Positions 374 through 52,317 of a stretch of 64,000 nucleotides of DNA are shown here, in pieces; the first letter of the stretch is position 1; each line of letters opens with the position of its first letter. The notes below the pieces were generated by a model, which was not told where the DNA came from, did not search any database, and worked only from the letters and a program-made list of their open reading frames with translations. Origin of the DNA: Hormiphora californensis (Eukaryota > Animalia > Ctenophora). The stretch lies in assembly GCA_020137815.1 (NCBI GenBank), contig CM035360.1, positions 1,550,001 to 1,614,000 on the forward strand, in the 5' to 3' direction. The position numbers were made by a program, and so were the translations under genes.

Positions 374-3300
374 TTATTTACCTGGTAAATACTGGTTACT
401 GGTAAGAGTAGCGGGATGGTTGATCCCAGTCGGGTTAAAATTACCCGGCTCAAAGTTGCACGGGTTGGGAGGGGAGAGAGGTTGTCCCGATTTCATGAAT
501 GATTTCTCAAACTTGGCCAGGATGTGCTTGCCGTACGGGAACTTCCTCAGAGTCTGAAAGGTGACAAGGAGGTGAATTCTCCACTATAAAACAGAGCTAA
601 ATTGTAAACAGAATTTACTTAAACTCAGGTAAGAATTTAACAAATTAGAAATTGAAATATACCTGGAGATGAGGTTTAATCTTGGACTGAATGGTTCGCT
701 TCTGAGTGGGATCAGCTACATCGTACATTTTCTGGACCACGTAGTTTGCAAATTGATCCTTCATCATCGTGAACAGAGCCGGATGGGGTCTGAAGGGGAT
801 GGAGTTTGGGTTAGCGATGGGGTCTGAAGAGGGATGGTAAAGTGTTAATGCGGGATGGGGTTTGAAGGGGGACGGTAGTGTTAGTGCCGGATGGGGTTTG
901 AAGGGGGATGGTAGTGATAGGGCTGGAATTGAGGGAGCTCTGAGGGGGTAAAGTGATAAGGGTCGGGATAGAACATACTGGCATTTCCATGTGCGATTAC
1001 AATACAATCCTGCACCACTGCTGCAGAGTTGCATGCAATATGGTTTTGGCACCAGCCCAAAGCGTGGTCCATTGAGTGGCAAGATGGTGCGCGCGCCCCC
1101 TCATCGTCCCTTGAAATGCCTTCACTGGAGATGTCTCACTTCGCGCGGAATGGAATGCGCGCCATTCGCATTGTTAGAGTGCCTCGGACCTCGTGTTCTT
1201 TCGACCACCATCATGGTCGTGTGTGACATTGGAGAAAGGGAGAGAGGGAGGGAAAAAAGTAGGGTGTGAAATCGGAGAGATGTGTTAAAACTTGAAAAGA
1301 TAACACACTCACCCATCCATTGTATTGCACACTTCATCTATCAGTGTAACTCGCTGGGGCCGAGTTGAATGCGTCACACACTTTTCCACTACATTACTGA
1401 AAAAGAGAGAGCGGGGAGATTAGGGGGTGGGTGTGGCAGGGGGGCGTGGCGATAATCTGTGTTTTGGCTGTTATTCTTTCAATAGTAGTCAAAACACGAG
1501 ATCATGTCTGACAAAAATTCAGTGTCTAACAGCCACAACTAGACTTGAGACATCTACTGTTTTGTCTTGCTAATCCCCATATTTCTCTCTCTCTCTCTCT
1601 CTCTCTCTTTTCTCTCTCTCTCTCTCTCTCTCTCTTTTCTCTCTCTCTCTCTCTCTCTCTCTCTCTCTCTCTCTCTCTCTCTCGTCTCCTCTCTCCTCTC
1701 TCTCTCTCACCTCAATTTCTGGTGACTCTAACTCTTTTCCTCTTAACCACTCATCTGGTGCTTACGTTCCTCCAGTCACCTGTTTCTTCCTCTTTCCCCT
1801 CTGTATCCGAGAGCTCTAGAACTTTCGGAGAAAATGGGGCAAGGTCAAGGTTTCATGATTGCTCGTCCAAACTCCCATTTCAGAATTTCGTCCATAGAAG
1901 GGTTAGAATTGGAGAAAGGGTTTTCAAGATCTGAGGTCAAGGGTAAGAATTGGAGAGAACAGGTACTCGAATCTTGGGATCCACAGACGGGTCATATCTC
2001 GTGGCGACAGTCCGGGTTACATTGGAGATCCCAGTACCCCGTCTCTATTCCCTGCAGATCTCGTACTCCATCATTCTCGAGTCAAATCATTTTCGCGTCT
2101 GGTCGATATTCAATTACAAGCTTCCACGTCCCAGTCCCACCTCATCATATCTTGTTAGAGAGAGAGTTAGAGACGATGCTAGAGAGAGGAGTGTGGAGAG
2201 AGAAGATTAGAAGAATATGAGATGGATAGAAGTAGGTAGAAGAGATATTCTTTTTTAAAAAAGAGTCTAATTTTGGTTAGCCCTTGGAAGGTCTGAAAAA
2301 AGCTAGGTATGCGACACTGCCCATACAATAGATTATCTTTTAGCTCCGTCAATCCATGCTCACCCATGAACCACTGAGAACTTGTTCTAGCCCTCCTTTG
2401 GGGAGCAGTAAGAGAGGTTCGAGATAGGCAGGCTGTTAGCACAAGATCTGGAAAAGCCACCCCTCTCCTCACAGATGGAACACTCTAGTAGCATCACATG
2501 TAATGTCATATTGCACGGTATATATAATCCCCCTCACGTGCAATGAAATCAAAAATTTTTCACGCTCCGCCAAACCCTTGCATCATGAGTCCACTAGTCC
2601 CACGAGGCGAGATTACACAAAAAACTCCCCCATCTCAGAAATCATATACGGGAACTTGGTTACACCCACGTGTTGTAATTGTCCCGCTCGGCTCGTGCCC
2701 CCGAATAATTGACCCTAAGGGTTGGGGGCTGCAGCTGTAGTGCTCGTGAATTGCCTGGAGAGAAGGATGGGTGGGCACTGAAGCCCCAGGGCTGGTAGAG
2801 CACCTACCTACAATTACACGGGTGTTGAAGGGCGACTGAGCATGAGGAGAGAGGTCCGAGGAGGAGAGAGAGCGGGCAGCGATGAGCACTGACCTGAGTA
2901 TGCTGAGCCGAGACAACAGGTCTGTCTCACTAGTCCCGTGTGATCCCTTTATGCCCTGACGGTTGGGCTGGCCGGTTGTGAGGGGACGTTTCCCGTCTTA
3001 GCTGGGACGATCTGGCGCTAGAGAGACACACTCTTCCTGCCTCCCCCACTGGGGTATGACAAAACTATTTGAGAGAGGGAGAGAGAGAGAGAGAGGGAGA
3101 GAGAGAAATTGCACTCTTTCAGAAACATCTTTAGACCGAAAGAAGAGGGAGAGACACGCCCCAAAACACATTTCATATTGGGAGTTTTTTCTTGGGGGCC
3201 TGAAATCTAACACCTTTTAGATAACAGAGATGTGGGAGAAAGAGAGAGAGAGAGAAAGAAATGGGGAAAGCACACGTTGAGTAGATGGAGTCCCAACTTC

Positions 3301-52317: not shown

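Follow-up and report, generated by a model that had tools for sequence, protein, structure and literature searches.

How is a gene read when the end of an intron has been copied several times over, together with the first bases of the exon that follows it? This question is raised by a stretch of 64,000 nucleotides from the ctenophore Hormiphora californensis (contig CM035360.1), referred to here as the window. The original prediction named nine acceptors in three genes whose junctions are duplicated upstream of the true site, and treated the arrangement as unusual. Junction-spanning repeats are, however, a pattern that has already been named ('mirage'). The arrays in the window are quite probably minisatellites of this type, tolerated as a by-product of tandem duplication across the intron-exon boundary.

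The window contains 55 GT-AG introns in five gene models, and all counts given here are counts within this one window, made in place of a genome-wide count. The KIAA0319-like gene, in which Pfam detects PKD domains, was modelled with 26 exons and GPD2 with 16. Both models were built from sequence and are open throughout, with no internal stops. Further models are Pumilio, a KH-domain gene and the 3' end of STT3. A Pumilio exon is 100% identical to the EukProt model 'sb/3467955' and matches a Mnemiopsis leidyi protein at 89% identity, and a GPD2 exon shows 95% identity to 'sb/3467199'. The 'sb' identifiers are presumably Pleurobrachia gene models.

Every acceptor and donor was scored for a same-strand copy of its junction up to 400 nt into the adjoining intron. 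At a score of at least 14, an upstream copy is found at 8 of the 55 acceptors (789, 5499, 7419, 21608, 25692, 33547, 48931 and 52156), or about one acceptor in seven in this window. The number expected from AGs of the same introns is 2.8 when the acceptor arrays are excluded from the controls (p=0.0003) and 4.1 when all controls are kept (p=0.012). At the strictest threshold 6 are observed against 3.9 expected (p=0.12). Among pooled control AGs, with a satellite-filled intron and the acceptor arrays excluded, 41 of 1630 match. These p-values are optimistic because the window was chosen for the pattern and the thresholds were set post hoc, and the true excess is therefore probably smaller. The affected introns are 274-3105 nt long.

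The predicted observation thus holds in part: eight of the nine named acceptors are copied above chance, while 30232 scores 8 and is weak. The predicted copy numbers were right, with 4 decoys at 21608, 29 at 25692, 2 at 33547, 2 at 48931 and 1 at 52156. The units take in 2-22 nt of the exon start, again as stated there. The features are listed in Table 1.

Table 1. Junction copies and related duplications in the window.
Feature	Positions	Strand	Description
Pumilio acceptor 789	778..927	-	Copy with AG 34 nt upstream; further, degenerate copies without AG
Pumilio acceptor 5499	5491..5568	-	Copies 32 and 65 nt upstream, both frameshifting
Pumilio acceptor 7419	7417..7475	-	One degenerate copy 36 nt upstream, 2 exon bases only
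KIAA0319-like acceptor 21608 (x5)	21445..21613	+	Five units of 33-35 nt, 4 decoys
KIAA0319-like acceptor 25692 (x30)	24784..25702	+	31-nt minisatellite, 29 decoys
KIAA0319-like acceptor 30232	29994..30241	+	Degenerate 3'-end duplications; junction copy at -207, score 8
GPD2 acceptor 33547	33407..33568	+	Two decoys, 63 nt upstream (22 exon bases) and 115 nt upstream (15 exon bases)
GPD2 acceptor 48931	48580..48949	+	Decoys at 48589 and 48663; C-rich repeat between them and the true site
GPD2 acceptor 52156	52060..52175	+	One decoy 72 nt upstream, 19 exon bases
Donor-side mirage, KIAA0319-like exon 29713-29783	29771..29966	+	Exon end and GT copied five times downstream
Donor-side copy	26700..26790	+	73 nt downstream of donor 26707
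Donor-side copy	28657..28684	+	17 nt downstream of donor 28663
22-nt array at intron 3' end	32957..33081	+	Ends 7 nt before acceptor 33089; no AG copied
112-nt duplication	38478..38714	+	Ends 2 nt before acceptor 38717; copy without AG
21-nt duplication at Pumilio acceptor 4698	4700..4740	-	Upstream copy without the G of AG
C-rich duplications before acceptor 28148	28023..28147	+	Fill the intron 3' end; no junction copy

Donors behave differently from acceptors. Copies were found at 2 of the 55 donors (26707 and 29783), or at 3 when 28663 is included at a lower threshold, and the 2 observed against 3.3 expected give no enrichment of donor copies in the window. Of the idea of a junction-focused duplication process, a junction-biased pattern is thus supported for acceptors (8 of 55) but not for donors, which are copied at the expected rate. 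None of these three donor copies was mentioned in the prediction, nor were the 3'-end duplications that stop short of the AG. Within the donor array, at 29832-30019, the X5 contig depth is about 30-50 times the local value and the next bin is uncovered; that sample may carry a longer array or a different allele. Elsewhere near donors, short repeats rich in AATT/TAAT often lie within the first 40 intron bases (3755-3789, 5930-5955, 19185-19224 and 30357-30385).

The acceptor copies belong to a broader zone of duplication in the last 180 nt or so of introns, where local duplications make up 30-40% of the sequence, versus 8-16% in the first 140 nt. With a stricter duplication word (20 nt with 2 mismatches), cover in the 49 introns of at least 140 nt is 27% in the last 60 nt and 7% in the first 60 (Wilcoxon p=0.003). 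Chance matching of low-complexity sequence was rejected as the cause of the 3'-end excess, cover dropping to about 0% once the sequence was shuffled in 30-nt blocks. The 3' ends of introns are rich in C (38%), and near them 26 of 50 C/G-rich tiles of 60 nt are duplicated versus 15 of 88 tiles that are not rich, the tiles not being independent.

Duplicated acceptors also differ from the rest in their branch motif. YTAAY occurs within 50 nt of the acceptor at 7 of the 9 duplicated sites versus 11 of the 46 others (p=0.004), and the branch A lies inside the unit in all 7 duplicated units that have the motif. Under uniform breakpoints, the chance that four short units all hold the branch A is about 0.012, a post hoc figure. 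A point against the mirage explanation is that neutral duplication alone would predict neither the acceptor excess nor the link to the branch motif, and so a mutational bias or selection would be required. The simplest reading of the branch A in every motif-bearing unit is a survival filter: if the last copy had no branch point of its own, an upstream AG would be used and the allele would be lost.

Alternatively, the bias may act at birth rather than on survival, through a splicing- or transcription-coupled mutational process that duplicates branch-point-bearing acceptors. Such a process would account for the enrichment of acceptors over donors (8 versus 2 of 55) and of YTAAY at the duplicated sites, as well as for a duplication cover that falls beyond about 200 nt from the acceptor. 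It would also fit the different units that two species have over one acceptor, 21608, as read from one contig's loose end, but microhomology, that is, short words common to exon start and branch motif, can explain such recurrence. C/G-rich tracts far from acceptors are moreover duplication-prone themselves (14 of 51 tiles far from the 3' end versus 35 of 341 that are not rich, tiles again not independent). One form of the process, reverse transcription stopping at the lariat branch point, is disfavoured since the units include the whole branch motif. We consider a birth bias unlikely.

According to the mirage explanation, the arrays would likely originate when repeats slip or cross over unequally in the ordinary way, at intron ends prone to duplication. 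Local duplications in the last 60 nt of introns have about 3-4 times the density of those in the first 60, and they are also denser in C- or G-rich tracts. The arrays would likely be tolerated since the copy next to the exon is still the one that splicing uses. A unit made of an intron end and an exon start would leave the last copy alone joined to the remaining exon. Because of this geometry, only the last AG gives the protein, and for copied donors the first copy is the functional one. An allele would then survive only if the last of its copies retains a branch point and is selected, via exon definition or exonic enhancers, and surviving units would consequently hold the branch motif and little exon. 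In the duplicated-splice-site experiments of Reed and Maniatis in 1986, short exon fragments reportedly favoured the outer site.

Further evidence can be found in read contigs; those of five of 19 runs, all of them contig sets, were compared with the window at 20380-22000 or 28140-33750 (X3, X5, X9, X10 and X11). X5 is a second sample of the same species, X11 comes from a related species (organism B), and X3 may be the assembly's own source. X9 was taken as RNA on a tool's guess, but its joins sit on intron boundaries. Contigs of this kind show presence only, and rare forms drop out.

The x5 array at 21608 is a presence/absence polymorphism within the species. In the comparison over 20380-22000, a 1072-nt contig from X5 (contig 18) skips 136 nt of the array and has one acceptor and no array. 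In X3, contig 12 lacks these 136 nt as well and has differences from the window at other places, while contig 13 spans the repeat joints with 0 differences to the window; the X3 sample therefore carries both forms. In organism B, a contig reads through the first 20 exon bases at this acceptor and then through the acceptor tract and exon start again. As read from this one contig's loose end, it is a different unit over the same acceptor, likely from an independent event. Array and no-array alleles coexist at this one site, and a related species has its own unit.

The absence of the x5 array from two contigs might suggest that the arrays are artefacts of assembly or sequencing, the more so as the assembly is not flawless. 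A conserved Pumilio repeat exon of about 31 residues, present in P0121, P0123 and P0124, was not found in the window, where it would be sought at 1396-3794 on the minus strand. Since Pumilio is out of frame without it, this probably reflects an assembly gap, a misjoin or a deleted haplotype. An artefact at 21608 is nevertheless unlikely because the repeat joints occur in a short-read contig with 0 differences (X3 contig 13). The units have also diverged from each other, with 12 variants among the 30 units at 25692. In addition, the model P0121, from a close homologue, reads through the junction copy at 5499 as 11 stop-free residues; although a prediction, it suggests that this repeat is common to the window species and the species of P0121. 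Taken as a general explanation, artefact is extremely improbable.

Use of the exon-adjacent site is seen at 1 of the 9 acceptors and at one donor, in contigs of depth 2.5. At the acceptor, X9 contig 27, which is 221 nt long at depth 2.5 and shows 0 differences, runs from the upstream GPD2 exon straight into 33547, past both decoys, in agreement with the claim that the last AG yields the conserved protein. At the donor, X9 contig 22 uses the first site at 28663 and not its copy. Both joins are what the mirage explanation would lead one to expect of the mRNA. X9 has no match on 20380-22000, and no exon joins appear among the X10 matches listed; neither result shows absence.

The prediction also held that decoys reach a stop within a few codons. 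For the nearest decoys this is true of some (codons 1, 4, 5 and 6) and not of others (codons 13, 14 and 54); thus 7 of the nine stop, and 2 shift the frame without a stop before the true acceptor. One of the 48931 decoys stops at codon 10. Of the nearest decoys, 4 are offset by a multiple of 3, and each of these 4 runs into an in-frame stop. Control AGs in the 3' parts of unaffected introns behave in much the same way, since 431 of 453 stop or shift the frame, and 65 of 75 at 28-80 nt (the STT3 phase was mis-set in 1 of the 46 control introns). There is no enrichment of stops or frameshifts at the decoys (9 of 9 versus 431 of 453), and the idea of stops by design is not supported, since their frequency equals the null. 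Upstream copies run into intron sequence, and decoys therefore stop or shift the frame like any intronic AG. Stops are found in the true frame at 7 of 9 nearest decoys versus 8 of 18 in the other two frames (p=0.22); this surplus hints, at most, at selection against errors invisible to NMD.

These figures bear on a regulatory explanation, in which decoy use scales with copy number and sends transcripts to decay, as an NMD-coupled expression dial. Its appeal is that all nine nearest decoys stop or shift the frame, that decoys can be as strong as true sites and that copy number is polymorphic. The control AGs and the comparison of frames remove the force of the first point, and the polymorphism speaks against a conserved dial: the x5 array is missing in other alleles and the unit differs in organism B (one site). 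In P0121, itself a prediction, the copy at 5499 is read without a stop, and the sole RNA contig at an acceptor shows the true site in use (33547). The dial is very unlikely. In the mirage explanation, NMD would probably remove the products of any leak to the decoys, as an incidental consequence.

Recursive splicing uses AG/GT ratchet points, the slash marking the splice junction. It had been proposed that the arrays are removed stepwise in this way, and the prediction correctly counted AG/GT at five of the nine named acceptors. As a signature this does not hold, because AG/GT is also found at 20 of the 46 other acceptors (p=0.72). Reconstituted donors were scored with a matrix from the 55 true donors. 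Two of them, at 21608 (7.7) and 48931 (8.6), fall within the true-donor range and would allow a ratchet there, but 3 of the 5 GT sites (25692, 33547 and 52156), the x30 array included, score below every true donor. The GT is missing at 4 of the 9 sites, and the introns are short (274-3105 nt). Removal by a ratchet is thus highly improbable. The likeness to recursive splicing is that some decoys read AG/GT; the differences are the lack of AG/GT enrichment, the mostly weak donors, the short introns and the absence of splicing intermediates among the contigs compared. At 21608 and at 7419 the decoys equal or beat the true site (18.1 versus 15.8 at 21608), and so local sequence does not explain the choice of acceptor. 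In the x30 array, 29 of 29 decoys keep the AG, and the true acceptor is an uncommon AAG (25689-25691).

The closest known system is found in amphioxus. As described in PMC3087553, minisatellite-like duplications of intron-exon boundaries occur there in 5' and 3' forms, with normal splicing by RT-PCR and with haplotypes that differ in length (6 versus 3 units); how they originate is described as unclear. The loci named are Adh3, troponin C, the globins BflGb6 and BflGb9, and PGBD5 (PMC3087553, PMC3902484), those of PGBD5 and troponin C being added in PMC3902484. To the extent of these sources, the ctenophore arrays resemble amphioxus mirages in several ways. Both are tandem repeats across intron-exon boundaries (here at 8 acceptors and 2-3 donors, out of 55 each), and both involve 5' as well as 3' boundaries (here donors 26707, 28663 and 29783). 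Unit sizes are similar, 10-160 bp in amphioxus and mostly 17-72 here. Many copies, though not all, keep the AG or GT, and copy number differs between haplotypes (here at one site, 21608). The joins seen here at one acceptor and one donor, in contigs of depth 2.5, are consistent with the normal splicing of amphioxus mirages. Unlike the amphioxus cases as these sources present them, the ctenophore arrays affect about one acceptor in seven in the window, are enriched at acceptors but not at donors, lie within a broader 3'-end duplication zone and have units that keep the branch motif.

Single human loci provide further parallels. According to PMC2630376, CBS 844ins68 is a polymorphic duplication of the site where intron 7 meets exon 8 in which splicing prefers the distal site and yields normal mRNA. 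The ctenophore arrays share the polymorphic junction duplication and the favoured distal site. The CBS case has one 68-bp copy, one locus and experimental splicing data, whereas the ctenophore arrays involve many loci and as many as 30 copies, with little RNA evidence. In the F7 gene, intron 7 has a 37-bp VNTR whose first unit spans the exon-intron boundary, giving rise to pseudo-sites that are functional but silent (PMC1557585). It matches the ctenophore donor array at 29783. In F7, however, the first donor site wins, while acceptor arrays need the last site, which 5'-to-3' scanning does not explain.

A link to intron gain had also been suggested. In the model of Rogers, as given in PMC3443670, a duplicated exonic AGGT creates a new intron. 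Tandem duplication and the splicing away of a redundant copy are common to both, but the junction copied here already existed; the gene models show no additional intron position, and it is the existing intron that grows. The open-frame models need none of the duplicated copies as an exon, and the units contain pre-existing intron ends. The link is therefore not supported. What stands of the original interpretation is the duplication bias on the acceptor side and, at 1 of 9 sites, splicing to the last AG; the AG/GT signature, the designed stops, the link to intron gain and the conserved NMD dial are not supported.

Neither a ctenophore mirage nor a genome-wide mirage survey was found in the literature searched, and the available text of PMC10078293 holds nothing bearing on junction-spanning repeats. 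Elevated indel heterozygosity in the introns of Hormiphora californensis, reported in PMC8527503, fits a rapid turnover of arrays. The present arrays extend mirage repeats to ctenophores, which are not among the cases in the literature found. The additions to the mirage picture are modest: the ctenophore case itself, the acceptor bias, the branch-motif link and the recurrence at one acceptor. No new splicing or regulatory system is shown by them, and none of the observations suggests that a ratchet or a regulated switch to decay is at work.

A more far-reaching possibility is that, in this ctenophore, acceptors bearing a branch point are hot spots where duplication recurs, struck separately in related species, with segregating arrays that tune expression by copy-number-dependent decay or, where the GT is donor-like, by re-splicing. 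We regard this as decidedly unlikely. The array and no-array alleles at 21608 offer natural material for studying how, among as many as 30 acceptors that are nearly identical, a spliceosome settles on the last one. Junction copies can also mislead gene prediction, as P0121 appears to run through one.

Several other elements lie in or beside the GPD2 introns. A sulfotransferase ORF at 35133-36332 on the minus strand (single exon, 399 aa, Pfam Sulfotransfer_2 E=1e-13) is antisense within a GPD2 intron; nested genes are reported to be common in Hormiphora. An inverted repeat at 41702-45555, also in a GPD2 intron, has arms of 1326 nt that are 98% complementary and encloses a 32-nt satellite in both orientations; it looks like a foldback-type element or palindrome. 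An ORF of 345 aa at 49429-50466 (+), again in a GPD2 intron, ends at a (GA)n tract. It has no Pfam match and, by eye, may resemble a LINE ORF1-type protein. Finally, a dispersed element of about 110 nt is found between the KIAA0319-like and GPD2 genes (31118-31226), with similar copies at about 9550-9655 and 47951-48058. Its contig depth is extreme in both species, and it is likely a very high-copy MITE.
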